Part shown: piece by piece, positions 1 through 8,103 of the stretch
Layout: every line of letters begins with the position of its first letter
How positions within the stretch are numbered: the first letter of the stretch is position 1
Source: a virus
IMG/VR virus record: IMGVR_UViG_3300031992_000005
Coordinates: 160,001-224,000 of that record
DNA: 64,000 nucleotides
Direction: 5' to 3' (one strand)
Notes under the pieces: generated by a model
Told to the model about the DNA's origin: nothing
The model's database searches: none
What the model saw: only the letters and a program-made list of their open reading frames with translations
Made by a program: the position numbers and the translations under genes

Positions 1-120
1 GACGAACTTCTCGCCAGTGGATTTAATACGAGACAGACTGATGTAAGACCAGCAAACAGTATTAATACTGCTTTGCAACTTGTAGCTGTAATATTCCAAC
101 TTCAGAGTTTACAGCAATTT
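1..120 (+). CDS. nrdD: anaerobic ribonucleoside-triphosphate reductase NrdD, exon a (5' end outside window)
   Basis: Frame 1 is open from the window edge (...INTALQLVAVIFQLQSLQQFG). It continues as GVSASHLDWTLVPYVKKSF at 387 once 121..386 is removed. Confidence 0.75.
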
Positions 121-386
121 GGTAGGCAAAACTGCCTGTTAAGCCCTTTCCACTAATCAGTGGGGTATAGATGTAATCTATGCTAACGATGAAGCCTAAG
201 TGTTCAGTGATGCGACATAAGGTAATATCGTGGGAATGTAATTTAATAAAATTACAAGCCTGTATCGACTATCTGCGGATCGGCAGAGTAAGGCAACTAT
301 TGATACGTTGTTTGAAATGGGCTTTGCTAGATTTATTAAGTCTAGTTAAGATATAGTCAGTGCATATAGAAATATATGATAAAACG
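121..386 (+). mobile_element. group I intron, ORF-less (nrdD intron 1)
   Basis: The 5' exon ends in U. It has gtatcgactat (P7 5' strand) and aagatatagtcagtgc (classic S element GATATAGTC). The P9 hairpin is catata-gaaa-tatatg and the terminal G is at 386. Confidence 0.65.
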
Positions 387-658
387 GGTGTATCGGCATC
401 ACACCTCGATTGGACTCTTGTTCCATACGTTAAGAAATCGTTTTATAAGCATTTCAAGACAGGAGCAGAATTCATTGAAGGAGTAACAATTCCTATTGAG
501 GAATTTAACGATAAAATGTCGCTCGATGATGAGAAGTATAAGTCGAGCGGAAAAGTTTATACATTTGCTATTAAGCAGACAGAGAAAGAACTAAAGCAAG
601 CAGTGGAGGGAATGTATCATAATCTCAATACACTCCAATCACGTAGTGGGAACCAATT
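387..658 (+). CDS. nrdD: NrdD exon b
   Basis: Reads GVSASHLDWTLVPYVKKSF...MYHNLNTLQSRSGNQ(L). ORF 360..662 runs into a stop just past the junction. Confidence 0.75.
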
Positions 659-1830
659 ATAACTTGCTGATTATCAGCTAGTTACGAAAGTAGCGAAATA
701 TTGATTGGCTATGTAGAAATACATTGAAATAATCGGGGCAAAATCGGTGAACCCTAAATTTTAAATTGTAAAAATTAATTCATTTCACTTTAATAGAAAT
801 TATTATATGGGTAAAAGAGTAAAAATCACAGAAGAATTAAAAAAAGATATTATAAATTTTTATCGCAGTAAGCCAATGTCATTTCTTACAGTAAGCGAAA
901 AATACGGTTTATGTTTGCCAACAATAAGTAAGATTTTAAAAGACGAAGAAAGATACAAGAAAGCGTCTATTTTTAATCCAGACTTTGATGAAGCGTATTT
1001 TGAAAATATTGATACAGAAGCAAAGGCATACTTTTTTGGATTAATAATTGCTGACGGTAATGTTTTTATCGACGAAAAAAATAAAAAAGCGAATAGGCAA
1101 GCAGTTATATCAATAATGCTAAATTCAAGTGATGAATATATACTAGAGCGCTTTAAAAACGAGGTAAAAACAAATACTATTGTTGGACATGATGGTAGAG
1201 GGTGTTCACAAATAGCGGTTAGAAGTAATAAAATGTCAAAAGACTTGGAAAAATATGGTGTTGTGCCAAGAAAAAGTTTTATAACTTATTTACCACAAAT
1301 AGATAAAGAGTTAATGCCGCATTTAATAAGGGGCATAATGGATGGAGACGGCAGTATAAATGCCCATTTAATTAAAAGTGGTAGATTTTTACATTCGATT
1401 GCATTTTGTGGAACTCATAGATTAATGTCTGAAATATCTGATTTTATATATTCTAATGCGAATTTGAATACAAAACCCAAAGTGTATGATTATAAAACTA
1501 GAACACTTAGTGAAATTGCTGTAAGAGGTATCGATGATATGTTTAAACTTGGGGAATTTATTTATAACAATTCAACCATATACTTAAACAGAAAAAGAGA
1601 AACTTATAATATGTTTTTAGAACATTACAATTTTTAAAACAAGGGAATACCGAGGTAATTTCTGAGATTGCGAAAGGCTCAGAAATACCGTAGAGCGTAG
1701 GAGGTGAATAAATATAATCCTCCCAAGAGTGTCCCCCCTTAGCGAGTAAAGTCGAAGGTGAAAATGTACGCCGACCTTATGGGAAACCATAAGAACTATG
1801 GGATAAAAAGCCTGTAGGATAACATAAGTG
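659..1830 (+). mobile_element. group I-like intron carrying a LAGLIDADG homing endonuclease gene (nrdD intron 2)
   Basis: P1 is AAUU/GAUU with U.G at 658. The 3' module ctatgggataaaaagcctgtaggataacataagtg ends in G at 1830. The same 5' (ggggcaaaatcggtgaa) and 3' modules recur in two polA introns. Confidence 0.7.
807..1637 (+). CDS. LAGLIDADG-family homing endonuclease (intron-encoded)
   Basis: Two LAGLIDADG-type motifs, FFGLIIADGNV and LIRGIMDGDGSI. The ORF lies wholly inside the intron. Confidence 0.85.
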   Translation: MGKRVKITEELKKDIINFYRSKPMSFLTVSEKYGLCLPTISKILKDEERYKKASIFNPDFDEAYFENIDTEAKAYFFGLIIADGNVFIDEKNKKANRQAVISIMLNSSDEYILERFKNEVKTNTIVGHDGRGCSQIAVRSNKMSKDLEKYGVVPRKSFITYLPQIDKELMPHLIRGIMDGDGSINAHLIKSGRFLHSIAFCGTHRLMSEISDFIYSNANLNTKPKVYDYKTRTLSEIAVRGIDDMFKLGEFIYNNSTIYLNRKRETYNMFLEHYNF

Positions 1831-1951
1831 GCCATTTACATCTATCAATTACGGTACATGTACGTCCGTAGAAGGTAGAATGGTGATAAAAGCCTTGCTT
1901 GAAGGTTCGATTAATGGTGTGGGTAAATTTCATAGAACATCCATATTCCCT
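1831..1951 (+). CDS. nrdD: NrdD exon c
   Basis: Reads (L)PFTSINYGTCTSVEGRMVIKALLEGSINGVGKFHRTSIFP, containing the NrdD PF(S/T)SINYG block. It is absent from the ORF track because it is short. Confidence 0.75.
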
Positions 1952-2266
1952 AAAAGTACCATTGGGGAAATAAAACAAGGTGAACTGTCAGAGACAGGTG
2001 TGGAAGTAGAATATAGTAGGAAATGACTATTGAGATACTTTTGCTAACAGGGGAAATCTAAACTTTAAATTAAAGCACGACAATCCTGTGCCAAGTTCTT
2101 TTATAGAAAAGGTCAAACGACTATCCTATGACGTTATTTAACTGAGGAGTAGGTCTATAGCGATATAGTTCCGAAGTGCCTTGTACTACTGAAGAGTAGT
2201 AATGATATAGTCTAATCCGGCTTCCTAGTAAGCGTTAAAGTATTGCGAAAGCAACGGTATATAATG
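1952..2266 (+). mobile_element. group I intron, ORF-less (nrdD intron 3)
   Basis: P1 is UCCCU/GGGGA with U.G at 1951. It has aacgactatcctatgacg ... aatgatatagtctaatcc and terminal G at 2266. The core is nearly the same as polA intron 59638..59932. Confidence 0.7.
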
Positions 2267-2449
2267 TGTGGAATTTTCCAGTATATGAAGGGTGTTAATG
2301 ATAAGCCTGGAACGCCAAATTATGATATGTATAAACTTGCATTAGAGTCAACAGCAAAACGTTTGTATCCAAATTATGCGAACGTTGACTGGAGTGGGAA
2401 TGCTGGATATGATAGAAATGATCCAAAAACTTACTTCAGCACGATGGGT
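2267..2449 (+). CDS. nrdD: NrdD exon d
   Basis: Reads CGIFQYMKGVNDKPGTPNYDMYKLALESTAKRLYPNYANVDW...YFSTMG. The N-terminal MRKQRYIM of ORF 2243..2452 is intron read-through. Confidence 0.75.
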
Positions 2450-2703
2450 TAGTGTAAATGTAGCTCATCTAAAATCTCTTGAACCGTGCCAACGGGTGTC
2501 CAGAAATGGGCTAACTGCCAGGCCCTAAAGTTTTAGGGTGAAGCAGTGCTAAGCTTAGAAGAATTTCTAAGAAAGTGTATCGACTATTGGTGATGAATGT
2601 AGCCAAGTAGGGGAGGAGATAGGCACCTCTTCGAAGCGGGAGACTTCTCAGGAAAATGAGAAGAAGATATAGTCAGTGCCTTTGGTAACAAAGGGTTAAC
2701 ATG
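2450..2703 (+). mobile_element. group I intron, ORF-less (nrdD intron 4)
   Basis: P1 is AUGGGU/GCUCAU with U.G at 2449. It has gtatcgactat ... aagatatagtcagtgc, P9 cctttg-gtaa-caaagg and terminal G at 2703. Confidence 0.7.
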
Positions 2704-3642
2704 TGCAGAACTGCAAACGGTTTTGATATAAATGGTTTAGGTCAGTTAAAGGATGGTAGAGGAAATGTATGTCCAGTTACTATCATTATGCCGACCTTAG
2801 CGATGGAAGCCGACAGAGATGTAGAGAAGTTCATGCGTCTCTTAGGAAGAAAAATTGAAGAAGCAAAAGACATGTTAATTGAGAGATTCAACTGGATTTG
2901 TAGTCAAAGTCCAGAGTCTGCTAGATTTATGTATGAGAATAATACTATGGCGGGTTATGTTCCGTCAGAGGGTATTAGGTCTGCATTAAAGCATGGAACT
3001 CTCAGTTTAGGTCAGCTTGGCTTAGCAGAAACTCTCCAGTTATTGATTGGAACGGATCATACAACAGAGGAGGGTATGAAGTTAGCCAAGAGAATTGAGT
3101 CTCTTTTCAAGAAGAGATGTGCAGAATATAAAGAAAAGTATAAATTAAACTTTGGTGTATACTACACACCAGCCGAAAATCTCTGTTATACTGCATTGAA
3201 GAAATTCAGAACAAAATATGGAGTAATAAAGGATGTAAGTGATAAGGAATTTTTCACTAATTCCATCCATGTTCCTGTATGGAGAGATATGAACCCATTT
3301 GAGAAGATTGATATTGAATCTCAGCTCACGGGTTATTCTTCGGCGGGTTGTATTACTTATGTTGAACTCCCATCCACAGTATTAAATAATATTGAGGCTT
3401 TGGAGACGTTAGTGAATTATGCAATGGATAAGGATATTCCTTATTTTGCAGTTAATGTCCCAAATGATACTTGTATGGAATGTGGTCATACTGGTGAGTT
3501 CGATGTTTGTCCTGAATGTGGTTCAGATAATGTAAGTCAGTTAAAGCGAGTTACTGGCTACTTGAATCTAGATTACAGAACTTCTTTCAATGAAGGAAAG
3601 CAGGATGAAGTACGGTATAGAGTAAAACACATCAAAGGTTAG
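2704..3642 (+). CDS. nrdD: NrdD exon e (C-terminal part, glycyl-radical region)
   Basis: Reads CRTANGFD...GRGNVCPVTIIMPTLA. It has a C-terminal Zn ribbon CMECGHTGEFDVCPECG followed by KRVTGYL (glycyl radical motif RVxGY). Confidence 0.85.
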   Translation, partial: CRTANGFDINGLGQLKDGRGNVCPVTIIMPTLAMEADRDVEKFMRLLGRKIEEAKDMLIERFNWICSQSPESARFMYENNTMAGYVPSEGIRSALKHGTLSLGQLGLAETLQLLIGTDHTTEEGMKLAKRIESLFKKRCAEYKEKYKLNFGVYYTPAENLCYTALKKFRTKYGVIKDVSDKEFFTNSIHVPVWRDMNPFEKIDIESQLTGYSSAGCITYVELPSTVLNNIEALETLVNYAMDKDIPYFAVNVPNDTCMECGHTGEFDVCPECGSDNVSQLKRVTGYLNLDYRTSFNEGKQDEVRYRVKHIKG

Positions 3643-3645
3643 TTT

Positions 3646-4143
3646 ATGAGGTATATTAAAATAACAGGCCCTGATGTAGAAAATGGTCTAGGTTTTAGAA
3701 CTACGTTATGGATTTCTGGGTGTAAGTGCCATTGTGAGGGATGTCATAATCCTGAAACATGGTCCTTCACATTCGGAAAGGAGTTCACTGATGAATCTTA
3801 TCAGGAGCTAAAGGAAAATTTATCCAAGCCTTATATCAAGGGGCTAACTTTATCTGGTGGTAATCCAGTTGATTCCCCGGAAGATTTATTAAGTTTATTG
3901 AAAAGAGTAAGAGAGGATTTTGGTAATTCAAAGGACATTTGGCTTTATTCTGGCTATGTATTTGAAGATCTCCTAAAGGATCCTCTATGTAAAGAAATTT
4001 TAGGCTTAGTTGATATAGTGGTAGATGGTCCATTTATCCTAAGCAAAAGAAATACAGCGCTCCCCTTCAGAGGTTCAGAGAATCAAAGAATTATCTTGGT
4101 TCAAGAATCCCTGAAAGAGGGAAATATAATCCTAAAGCAATAA
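3646..4143 (+). CDS. nrdG: anaerobic ribonucleotide reductase activating protein (radical SAM)
   Basis: Has the CxxxCxxC cluster in GCKCHCEGCHNPETW. It starts 3 nt after the nrdD stop. Confidence 0.85.
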   Translation: MRYIKITGPDVENGLGFRTTLWISGCKCHCEGCHNPETWSFTFGKEFTDESYQELKENLSKPYIKGLTLSGGNPVDSPEDLLSLLKRVREDFGNSKDIWLYSGYVFEDLLKDPLCKEILGLVDIVVDGPFILSKRNTALPFRGSENQRIILVQESLKEGNIILKQ

Positions 4144-4493
4144 TAAATAATCCATTCCTCAGGAGAAAACTCTTGGGGAATGGCATCTGCTGAATGAAAA
4201 ATATTCATTTATATCAAAAAATATTCAAAAATAAGCAAGCTTTTTAAAATCACGTGATATTTATATATGAATACTAAGATAAATAATAAAAAAAAATAAG
4301 TGAACTTATGAAACATAAAAATATTAAAGTTGTTTCGATTGACACTGAAAATATGTTGTATACTTGTGACGATGGTAATGAATCCATTAATGGATGGGCT
4401 TGAAACATTGTCAATAGAAGAGTTACAGAAACACATAGATAGTGCAAAACAAGCAACACTTGATATAATTGAAAAAAAAATAGAAAGTAGGCT

Positions 4494-6134
4494 ATGATTA
4501 TACAGAGTAAGTATACAAAGATATTCCATTCAAAGGATTTAACTCGTCAGAAGTATGATGAGTTAAATGACTTTGCTGTGCTTATTCAAAACCATAAAAA
4601 CACCGTGTCACAATACGTTAATGATAACATTCTTCATTTCTTGGAATACAATAAGTTCCAATTCCTTAAGGTAATGAGAGAACGTTTCAAAGAAGTTATC
4701 CCAAGTTCATTTGATGCACAACTTTATACACAAGTGTTCACTTGTTATCAGAATAAATTCGATGCAATACAACGTAAACTTGTCTTTGAAATCGTTACAT
4801 TTAAAGGATTTGAGTTTTATAAACGTGATACCAAGAAACATAAGGAAGGTGACTTGAAAAAAGTAGTTTTTGATAAGAAACAAACACCATTATCTAACTG
4901 TCTTACTTATCTTGCGAGATACAGTAATGAGAATACAATAGACTACATCAATGACAATATAAGCAAGTGTGACGAGAAGAAACGTGAGTTCTATAACAAC
5001 ATACTAAGATGTTGTGATAAATTCGGATTTGAACGTCTCTACAATCTTGCTTTGTCAAAAAGAAAACGTGTTGTCAAGCATTATTCTGAATATCCTATTG
5101 AGTTCAAGTCATTAACGTTCAGTGGTAGGTGTAGGAAGACAAGGATAATAGACTACAACAGTAGGTTTGGTTCAGTAATCAATTCATTCGTAAGTCTCAG
5201 TGGAATTGGTAGGAAATCATTTGATGTACCAGTTACCTTTAATAAAGGTTGGCATGGAAGTATGAAGGATTACAGAAAGAAAAATAACGATTATGAATAC
5301 ACGCTTACATTTAATGAAAAGAATCACCAAGTGAATATTCATCTGTGTAAAGATGGAGAAAGGTATATACCACAAGTACATGGTGAAACAATAGGCATTG
5401 ATGTTAATTGCAAACATAATTTGTTCAGTTTGTCAGATGAAACCACTTATGACTATGATAGAAAACTTGTTAATGACTTCTGTAAACTATCTCTTGAAAT
5501 AGATAAATTGAAAGAAAAAGATAAAAAATATAAGGTTGGTAAACGTAAACAGCAGAAACTTGATACTCTCAAATCCAAAATGATTAAGTCTGAGCAGCAA
5601 CTTATTGCTAATATGTGTAAGGTATTACATTCACAAGGTGTGGGGCATATTGTAATGGAAGACCTTGATAATGGATTTGGCAAATGCTATGTTAAAGATA
5701 AGGATAATGAGAATATAAATTACAACAGAAAGGTTAAATTCCTTGGCTTGAGTAGTCTTAAACAAGAAGTTGAGCGTATTGCAAAGAAATATGATATTGC
5801 GGTTTCAACAGTTCAAGCAAGTTATACATCGAAGATGTGTCCTATGTGTGGATGTATTGAGGACGAAAACAGACCAAACCAAGAAACATTTGAATGTGTT
5901 GAATGTGGACATAAAGATAATGCAGACTTTAATGCTGCAAAGAACATAAGGAACAGAGTGCTTGTAATCGTGTTACGAGATTTGCTCTTAAAACAAAAGG
6001 ATAATGGTGCTTTTGAGCCTAAGAAACTTAAACGTGAGAAGGTAAAGGAGGTATTGTTATCGTTTCGAAGAAGCCTACAAAATGTAGGAAGTGAATGTAC
6101 AGAAAGTAGTGTGACTACTTTTGACTATGTTTAA
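4494..6134 (+). CDS. tnpB: TnpB-like (IS200/IS605 OrfB / Cas12-ancestor) RNA-guided endonuclease, no tnpA nearby
   Basis: RuvC-I is IGIDVN, RuvC-II is HIVMEDL, the Zn ribbon is CPMCG...CVECGH and RuvC-III is NADFNAAKNI. All catalytic positions are present. Confidence 0.85.
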   Translation: MIIQSKYTKIFHSKDLTRQKYDELNDFAVLIQNHKNTVSQYVNDNILHFLEYNKFQFLKVMRERFKEVIPSSFDAQLYTQVFTCYQNKFDAIQRKLVFEIVTFKGFEFYKRDTKKHKEGDLKKVVFDKKQTPLSNCLTYLARYSNENTIDYINDNISKCDEKKREFYNNILRCCDKFGFERLYNLALSKRKRVVKHYSEYPIEFKSLTFSGRCRKTRIIDYNSRFGSVINSFVSLSGIGRKSFDVPVTFNKGWHGSMKDYRKKNNDYEYTLTFNEKNHQVNIHLCKDGERYIPQVHGETIGIDVNCKHNLFSLSDETTYDYDRKLVNDFCKLSLEIDKLKEKDKKYKVGKRKQQKLDTLKSKMIKSEQQLIANMCKVLHSQGVGHIVMEDLDNGFGKCYVKDKDNENINYNRKVKFLGLSSLKQEVERIAKKYDIAVSTVQASYTSKMCPMCGCIEDENRPNQETFECVECGHKDNADFNAAKNIRNRVLVIVLRDLLLKQKDNGAFEPKKLKREKVKEVLLSFRRSLQNVGSECTESSVTTFDYV

Positions 6135-6164
6135 TTCTTCGGAATGGAGTAAATTAATAGTGAG

Positions 6165-6419
6165 ATGGAATTATACAAAGAAGATTTATTTGGTATAGGT
6201 ATTCCTGATAAAGATTCAGAAGATAATACCTTTTTTGCACTTGAGCATGGTTCTGGCACTTATGTAGCCAAAATTATTCTTAGAGAAGTTTTAAGGCTTT
6301 GGAATTATGAAATCAAGGAGGAGAAGGACATTGTTATGGATTCTCAATTCATGTTAGGTTGTTATACTAACATGCCTTGGTCTGTATTTAAAGATTTTCG
6401 CAAAAATTTTGTGAAATAA
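6165..6419 (+). CDS. hypothetical protein
   Basis: From the ORF track. It starts 30 nt after tnpB and could overlap the TnpB guide-RNA region. No motif recognised. Confidence 0.4.
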   Translation: MELYKEDLFGIGIPDKDSEDNTFFALEHGSGTYVAKIILREVLRLWNYEIKEEKDIVMDSQFMLGCYTNMPWSVFKDFRKNFVK

Positions 6420-6489
6420 TAGTAGGTTGTTGTTAATAATAGATTAATGAACCTATAAAATTACATTTAAGATGAAGTAAAGAATCGTT

Positions 6490-6870
6490 ATGACGGAGAA
6501 GCAGATAGATCTTTTAATAGATCTAAGAAATCAATGTATAGGAAGAGGTGTAATGTATTTAACCATTCCTGAGCAGAAGCCGGAGTCTATTAGTAGTAGT
6601 ACTAGTATTATTGCTTCTACTCCTAAGAATCCGTTCACAAAGGAAGAGGTAGACCTTCTTATTCAGATGTTATTGAAGACATTTGAATTTAAGGGAATTA
6701 TGAAAAAGGGTGATGAGCATTTTCTATGGTCGAGTATCCTAGGAGATCATGCAACAAATCCTTTTTACATATTCGAGTCTCCTGGTTATCGCATTGAACT
6801 GACAACAGTAGATAAGCGCTTTATAGCTGAATTAAGGGCAACTGTCGAGGAAACATCTTCCAAATCGTAA
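6490..6870 (+). CDS. hypothetical protein
   Basis: From the ORF track, tiling with same-strand neighbours. No motif recognised. Confidence 0.5.
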   Translation: MTEKQIDLLIDLRNQCIGRGVMYLTIPEQKPESISSSTSIIASTPKNPFTKEEVDLLIQMLLKTFEFKGIMKKGDEHFLWSSILGDHATNPFYIFESPGYRIELTTVDKRFIAELRATVEETSSKS

Positions 6871-6972
6871 AAACTCTGTTATGAGAACTTAAAACTCTTA
6901 CTTAAGATTAAACAAAAAGAGATTCAGGTCTCTGTTGAGTTAGATTATAACAATTAATTTTTTATATATTAT

Positions 6973-8103
6973 ATGTTTGATGATGAAGATTTTCTTCTAG
7001 ATGATGAAGATTCAGATTCGGGTTATATAGTAACCCCAGCGGATGAAGATGCTGAGGATGACAATGACGATGAGAATGGGTCGGAAGTTGAAGAAGAAGC
7101 CAAACCCACTAGAAAAAAGAAAGCAACTGAGGATGATTATGATAATCGAATGACTCATGATGAGTTAGCCCTTAGTAGTGCTTACGATGATATTCGGGCT
7201 GCTAGTAAGAATCCGGATAAGATTTCTGTGGGTGGTAAAATGTTTGATCAAAACATTATAGATGCGGTAAGAACTATTATTGGTTGTTCACCAGCTAATA
7301 CTTCTACTCACTTTATTGAGAAGATAACACTTGAATTCTTCCAATCTCAGGGTCATAATCGTATTCCATCCAGCGTATATACTCCAGATCAGCCATTACG
7401 TGGAAGTTCAATTGGTGAGGAATTTGGTGGTCAGGATGATAATGGTTTCAATGAGCAATATGCTAAAGAAGCCAGAGAGCAGATTGCGAGGTTTATAAAA
7501 TACTTGGCGGATAGAGATTTGAGTAAAGATTCTACTGTAAGTAGAAAAAGGAAGTTAAGACAGCTCCCTGCTTTTATCATTTTCCTATTCAGTTCTGGTA
7601 TGTACGACCTTCTCCTGAACTGTGAGACATTACCACCGGAGTATAAAACTCAGGTGAATAATGCTTTCAAGAGAATTCAGAAACAGAAATATGATATTGT
7701 TGAGGCATTGGCTAAGCGTTATGAAGAGCTAGGTAGGCAGGCTATAGCAGATAGAGTGAGAAAAATGGGTCTCACTTGGTTTGATAAGGAGCCAGCTGAA
7801 TTAACGGGGTTAAAGACTTTCAAAGATCTTGACCTAACCCATGAGGATATCATGGTATATCGTGAATTTAGACCTAGATATGTAAACGCTAGTAAAAATA
7901 TAACTCAGGAATTAATATCAGATATGATTGAAGTTGTCTTAGTCCCTGGCAAGATTTATGAAAAGCTAAAGGATAAGACTAGATTTGATGCTATCTCTGA
8001 TGTTAAGCAAGTCTACAAAGATTGGTCCGCTAATAATGCAGTGGATTCTGAGCTTGCCTCAAAAATTATCTGGAAAGATCCTAAATTAGTAAATAAACAA
8101 TAA
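6973..8103 (+). CDS. hypothetical protein with highly acidic N-terminus, immediately upstream of RNAP beta-prime gene
   Basis: A 376-aa ORF with an N-terminal D/E-rich run. Its stop is 2 nt before the beta-prime start. Confidence 0.6.
   Translation: MFDDEDFLLDDEDSDSGYIVTPADEDAEDDNDDENGSEVEEEAKPTRKKKATEDDYDNRMTHDELALSSAYDDIRAASKNPDKISVGGKMFDQNIIDAVRTIIGCSPANTSTHFIEKITLEFFQSQGHNRIPSSVYTPDQPLRGSSIGEEFGGQDDNGFNEQYAKEAREQIARFIKYLADRDLSKDSTVSRKRKLRQLPAFIIFLFSSGMYDLLLNCETLPPEYKTQVNNAFKRIQKQKYDIVEALAKRYEELGRQAIADRVRKMGLTWFDKEPAELTGLKTFKDLDLTHEDIMVYREFRPRYVNASKNITQELISDMIEVVLVPGKIYEKLKDKTRFDAISDVKQVYKDWSANNAVDSELASKIIWKDPKLVNKQ

Follow-up and report, generated by a model that had tools for sequence, protein, structure and literature searches.

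The DNA between nrdG and the downstream phage gene ORF 6165 harbors a mobile element in the window, that is the whole 64,000-nt stretch of the virus record IMGVR_UViG_3300031992_000005 which was analyzed here. Our overall explanation, to which a probability of roughly 70% can be assigned, is that of a non-autonomous IS607 element from a family common in gut jumbo phages, which would spread by RNA-guided homing. Its nature as a tnpA-deleted, non-autonomous derivative of the IS607 family is nearly certain. A serine-transposase element entered the spacer from nrdG to ORF 6165 at a GG core, tnpA was lost and orfX was broken afterwards, and tnpB together with the RNA scaffold was kept under selection in the meantime. 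Taken alone, this copy is an ordinary decayed transposon; new here are the empty alleles, the haplotype tract, the overwrite of the left end and the evidence from fold and tree.

The genome carrying it is that of a complete 353-kb phage with a single copy of the element. Since close strains show the empty site, the insertion could be delimited by comparison of empty and filled alleles to 1,964 bp at a GG core, present at the left (4177-4178) and at the right (6141..6142) with family conservation ceasing one base beyond the latter (these and all following features lie on the + strand, only the identical tract described below being without strand). The left flank consists of the phage gene nrdG (3646..4143; Pfam Fer4_12) and an intergenic phage hairpin (4152..4183), the recipient of the insertion, which is found in empty alleles too. 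The target-adjacent position (4175..4178) reads GGGG, whereas TGGG occupies it in 16 of 19 insertions of the family. Next come the five outermost nucleotides of the left end (4179..4183). Where A-T-W-A-A is usual, the window copy repeats the initial 5 nt of the right flank, and the element is consequently bracketed by a 7-bp direct repeat. The conserved IS607 left end follows (4184..4266; 88-94% identity with tnpA-bearing copies). By eye, the two ends of the element look unrelated. As the element ends at 6142 and not at 6480, the limit set by the original prediction, positions 6143-6480 are phage DNA; they include an 84-aa phage gene of unassigned function (6165..6419), which in empty alleles directly follows nrdG.

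The search for an empty site between nrdG and the next gene, proposed beforehand, was successful for 33 contigs of close strains (non-independent samples), in which nrdG lies 56-58 nt from ORF 6165, and the site is empty in most of the close strains sampled. Compared to the predicted guide of the window element, 19 of these 33 contigs match exactly, 10 carry mismatches and four carry deletions, making the perfectly matching allele the commonest one sampled. Without exception, GGGG and never TGGG precedes the target. The empty alleles differ at 5-12 or more of the 498 nrdG positions, hence the region is not simply invariant. Distant phages retrieved via ORF 6973 do not have this neighborhood. 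Reading the allele of L149 (three mismatches in 22 nt) as an escape allele was rejected, because its variants recur in strains that are divergent, and a match to the guide is the rule among empty alleles. The deletions of about 46 or 94 nt in the empty alleles L171, L176, L177 and L179 remove the target (equivalent to window 6149-6243) and start 6-7 nt beyond the core, while according to gene callers the downstream ORF stays open from an upstream TTG; they could be cleavage scars or hairpin-induced deletions.

Homologs of the element form at least 1,774 clusters, the best 120 of them at 87-93% identity, and relatives of 85-92% identity are scattered over numerous unrelated sites in gut jumbo phages, in many cases along with an IS607 serine TnpA. 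At about 100 loci the DNA is conserved until 8-9 nt beyond the stop codon and thereafter different in every copy. Full copies comprise a left end, a 76-aa orfX, an IS607 serine transposase (184-190 bits with model NF033518, cut-off 110), optional cargo, tnpB and a right end, whereas reduced copies retain the helix-turn-helix (HTH) part of tnpA only, tnpB only or just the ends (mini-elements of 234-240 bp). Near-identical elements at two sites (L275/L276) and a phage record with four right ends complete this picture. The occurrence of the same element at unrelated sites points to mobility, as judged by sequence comparison, and supports the selfish element considered in the original prediction. 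That closely related elements with an IS607 tnpA occupy other sites had been named there as a refuting finding, and it speaks against a domesticated nuclease. GTDB genomes contained no protein relatives and a single right-end match, located on a 360-kb faecal-MAG contig (L274, labeled as a Bacilli MAG; truncated tnpA and a break in tnpB), which is possibly a binned phage. Cultured phages and plasmids yielded weak partial matches only. Since such scans detect close relatives only, the designation as phage-restricted is provisional.

Several variants within the family were observed in addition. Cargo ORFs of 53, 104, 113 and 139 aa without a known family lie between tnpA and tnpB (L001, L275, L009 and L004). 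In a lineage comprising L003, L006, L010, L068 and L278, tnpA is replaced by a protein of 103 aa that has only the HTH and a helical tail; it is intact at many sites and a possible regulator. The mini-elements L212/L238 and L243 (G003) consist of a short left end and the omega-RNA scaffold, with a full element in the same phage; they are potential trans-acting guides. Some divergent copies (L094/L096, L110) have a GAT end instead of GG and a long two-sided flank similarity, which suggests another type of end or duplication. In the jumbo-phage records G003, G012 and G016 the family profile has 7-10 matches each, among them several unrelated TnpBs of about 400 aa.

The window left end is up to 94% identical to those of relatives, and the frameshifted small gene suspected upstream of tnpB turned out to be an orfX pseudogene (4267..4497). 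Its fragments match, in two frames, the orfX of L001 (L001:1565-1792, the conserved 76-aa gene before tnpA) at 97-100% in tblastn, and alignment to L275 places the frameshifts at +2 nt in an A-run (~4290) and -2 nt (~4382). The second of the two small ORFs ends at 4497 with an ATGA overlap, not at 4500 as first given. Programmed frameshifting was ruled out, as orfX is uninterrupted in the relatives, where the intact 76-aa gene lies between left end and tnpA. orfX matched no named family; its cluster in Atlas has 92 members, viral where recorded. Deletion of tnpA and of any cargo left an A-rich junction (4470..4487), the left side of which aligns with the end of orfX, the right side being similar to the sequence leading into tnpB in L008/L009. 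The complete 353-kb genome contains no resolvase-family gene and no match to IS607 tnpA, which bears out the earlier impression that no serine transposase is nearby. With tnpA deleted here and absent from the genome, the copy is a non-autonomous derivative.

The tnpB ORF (4494..6134; 546 aa) encodes a WED/REC lobe with an extra helical insertion (AlphaFold model, pLDDT 91), RuvC, a C-terminal TnpB/Cas12f zinc-finger domain and a C-terminal extension. An intact nuclease of this type had been predicted, and the alignment agrees: D303, E389, D478 and the four zinc-finger cysteines are kept in 81-82 of 82 diverse homologs, RuvC-I has the form D303-x-N305 with N305 invariant among family homologs, and the window protein conforms at all 51 well-conserved columns. 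Inactivating substitutions, sought in this alignment, were not found; an identity as TldR, a nuclease-dead TnpB, is ruled out since all catalytic residues are intact. The region of about 290 aa upstream of RuvC-I was confirmed as well. The protein scores below the cut-offs of the NCBI models for IS607 TnpB and guided_TnpB. Its dN/dS to close relatives is 0.06-0.09. These sequence data support the predicted role of TnpB as a probably active omega-RNA-guided nuclease, which likely acts on the empty site.

For the corresponding RNA, a scaffold including the right end is predicted at 5955..6142, overlapping the last ~60 tnpB codons, ending in UUCGG and thus lying almost wholly within the ORF. The two stem-loops of the original prediction are real (6074-6088 and ~6102-6122), but both are located within the ORF and none in the spacer. 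The region 5940-6165 folds more stably than expected by chance (z = -4.7), and a structure of 54 pairs across 64 relatives is paired in 97.7% of cells with double changes in 19 of the 54 pairs, none of 500 shuffles being as good and slid controls scoring far lower, although scoring a structure on the alignment from which it was built favors it somewhat. In line with a scaffold at the 3' end of the gene, as had been proposed, tnpB dS is 2.7- to 31-fold lower within the overlap, and the scaffold is retained in the mini-elements. An Rfam search gave no credible match, including none to a group I intron. The predicted guide (6143..6162) is the right flank and thereby the empty-site sequence, and a guide of 16-20 nt would stop short of ORF 6165, into which it had been assumed to run. 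Its single 16-nt match in its own phage genome is itself; as guide and right flank are the same, the target would be the empty site and not the host. Taken together, these features indicate a structured right-end RNA followed by a variable, flank-derived guide. Scans for sigma-70 promoters and terminators remained at chance level.

Among known elements, CboIStron, for which a GG core, a TGGG TAM and a scaffold ending in UCGG have been described (doi 10.1101/2023.11.20.567912), and ISFba1 resemble the family in having a serine TnpA in full copies, the GG core with TGGG in the left flank, a scaffold end of UCGG, a guide from the right flank and frequent loss of tnpA. The family matches neither a group I intron nor RAGATH-18, and its TnpB of 546 aa here is larger than that of ISFba1 (~390 aa; PMC11061315). 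An IStron was rejected as candidate, given the missing Rfam intron match, a left end reaching only ~90 nt before orfX and the intergenic site. The family further differs from known IS607 elements by orfX and cargo, the left-end overwrite, a scaffold nearly all in the ORF and its occurrence essentially only on phage-like contigs.

Among solved structures, those of Casλ and Casλ2 are closest to the AlphaFold model (Z 19-21 with as many as 469 residues aligned, rmsd 4.4-7.5; best single match Casλ with Z 20.9, 468 aligned and rmsd 6.0), with lower values for Cas12f (Z 15.6) and both solved TnpBs (Z 14.6). In an unbiased comparison of the N-terminal 295 aa alone with 48,000 chains, Casλ again came first (Z 13.9, 250 aligned, rmsd 7.5), versus ~175 aligned residues at rmsd 3.5 for non-Casλ chains, which indicates that the extra length before RuvC is a Casλ-like REC insertion. 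A search with the N-terminal sequence profile found neither Casλ nor any solved relative. The family profile retrieved array-linked proteins of 772-814 aa in element-carrying phages, one of these proteins being confirmed as Casλ. Both groups share D-x-N at RuvC-I (D324/N326 in Casλ2), NAD at RuvC-III and an extension after RuvC-III, and hhalign related them with 97% and E 4e-11, the C-terminal extension included. In a RuvC tree calculated without this extension, the family grouped with Casλ at 97/91 to the exclusion of the 22 other TnpB-type proteins included, a value to be read with its sampling of three Casλ and few outgroups, five of them picked as the nearest non-family matches. HMM scores rank Cas12f above Casλ as a match to the family. 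Based on fold, motifs and tree, this TnpB lineage appears to be the closest transposon relative of Casλ among those compared, and it is fairly likely that the family is a sister or ancestor of Casλ.

The likeness to Casλ/Casλ2 (PDB 8DC2, 9IZP-9IZR; PMC12141684) thus covers the fold over the whole length and the N-terminal part, D-x-N, NAD and the C-terminal extension as well as the presence in the same phage genomes. The window TnpB differs in being ~200-270 aa shorter (Casλ about 740-815 aa) without the large RuvC insertions (D-to-E spacing 86 versus 202 in Casλ2), in keeping the zinc finger, in residing in a mobile element without CRISPR array and in a predicted G-rich TAM versus TTR. Since no array lies within window 3600-7200, whereas arrays are present at the Casλ loci L319-L322, and since the protein is much shorter, it is not a Casλ. 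Those loci carry Casλ-type genes (772, 781 and 814 aa) with arrays of ~5 to over 24 repeats, the array of L320 showing two repeat variants. Cas12f and Cas12f-like TnpBs are the best sequence matches for the RuvC/zinc-finger half, yet they lack ~75 aligned residues of the REC insertion and fall outside the branch of family and Casλ where sampled. In the literature searched, to which the Casλ discovery paper in Cell does not belong, Casλ and IS607 do not occur together and a TnpB ancestor is not identified. Through a mobile and abundant relative of 546 aa that uses a defined single omega-RNA, the step from TnpB to Casλ would become testable, and the family TnpB is a compact nuclease candidate.

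Traces of spread were found around the window element itself. The filled strains comprise at least two haplotypes. L144/L150, which have an additional HNH gene inserted in nrdD, show zero differences to the window over 3175..6699, a co-conversion-like tract including the element with ~1.0 kb of left and 0.56 kb of right flank, versus 52 differences in the next 3.7 kb (~1.4%); for L147/L148 the identity with the window extends to 7062. The longest identical run elsewhere, in ~14 kb compared, is 577 nt. Under a fixed rule, left-end bases equal right-flank bases in the window, L001, L212 and L278, thus in four of 19 copies versus 0.21 expected (p ~1e-5), it being noted that the idea of an overwrite arose from three of the copies later tested. 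The idea preceded the discovery of L212/L238, L278 and the L275/L276 pair, and L080 is a fifth match identified by hand. Most copies show no target duplication, while in the window copy and about a quarter of the others 5-7 bases of the target recur where left-end bases would be expected; we read these as a secondary overwrite.

A homing process might generate both traces. The tnpB transcript would be processed to an omega-RNA with the right flank as guide, the RNA-nuclease complex would cut a co-infecting sister phage at its empty allele, and the element would be copied together with its flanks when the cut phage is repaired by recombination. Incomplete trimming of the cut end would let target sequence overwrite the first bases of the left end in a one-sided manner, for which T4 intron homing provides the analog. 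Copied by cut and repair, the element would act as an RNA-guided homing endonuclease that needs no transposase. We consider it somewhat probable that homing explains both the tract and the overwrite. The joint proposition, a living transposon sister or ancestor of Casλ with an enlarged REC lobe and at the same time a phage-to-phage RNA-guided homing element that leaves scars, is tentative and falls a little short of even odds. The nuclease of ISFba1 cuts the non-target strand 16 nt past the TAM (PMC11061315), so that repair would have to remove the target tail as far as the junction. The TAM requirement of IS607 elements can be strict (PMC11061315), and the non-consensus GGGG is the main point against homing at the window site, which is homing-like if this TAM permits. 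Phage homing endonucleases and the plasmid TnpB gene drive (PMC13565253; PMC11870625) have in common with it that a co-resident genome is predicted to be cut at the empty allele and that flanking markers spread along; here, the process would be RNA-guided, IS607-derived and acting between jumbo-phage strains, as deduced from natural haplotypes only. TnpB homing is known from the laboratory for chromosomes and plasmids, to which the window locus adds traces between phages in natural populations, with the left-end overwrite as a sequence scar for which every copy can be scored.

The same GGGG would suit a passive remnant. In this reading a poor TAM has left the IS607 copy stranded at its site, and it spreads only by hitch-hiking and by ordinary recombination between strains. 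The absence of tnpA from copy and genome, the decayed orfX and the commonness of intact guide-matching empty alleles fit this reading, and the low dN/dS may predate the insertion in the window. We nevertheless regard it as unlikely, as the longest tract of identity between haplotypes is centered on the element, the overwrite requires a strand end at the junction and tnpB is undamaged while orfX has two frameshifts. The identity tracts taken by themselves could stem from ordinary recombination or chimeric assemblies. For the overwrite step only, the insertion reaction itself might duplicate bases, either by offset strand exchange or by a TnpA preferring targets similar to the left end. Targets indeed favor A at +1 and share the AT-richness of the left end, and the junction chemistry of TnpA-S shows unresolved oddities (doi 10.1101/2023.11.20.567912). 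Serine recombinases make no duplication, and none is left by IS607 insertion (PMC13565253); moreover, variant left ends also occur at non-matching targets (L079, L243, L068), and L275 and L276 differ at this position with two of three L276 changes matching its own flank, leaving this origin improbable, if slightly less so than the passive remnant. Very improbable is a domesticated nuclease used by the phage as a weapon against host or competitor DNA, the other option of the original prediction. An intact and selected enzyme without transposase would suit such a role, cutting empty sister phages would incidentally benefit the carrier, and its relative Casλ genuinely serves phages as a weapon. 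Against this stand the absence of the element from most sampled close strains, the retention of both transposon ends, a guide which is local flank and different in every copy, and the lack of a nearby CRISPR array.

Further insertions were observed upstream of the element. Several insertions that contain endonuclease-like ORFs and are polymorphic among strains interrupt nrdD (window 1-3642; also L144, L154, L162 and L170), L144 carrying an extra HNH insertion at ~3171. Additionally, an intein is annotated upstream.
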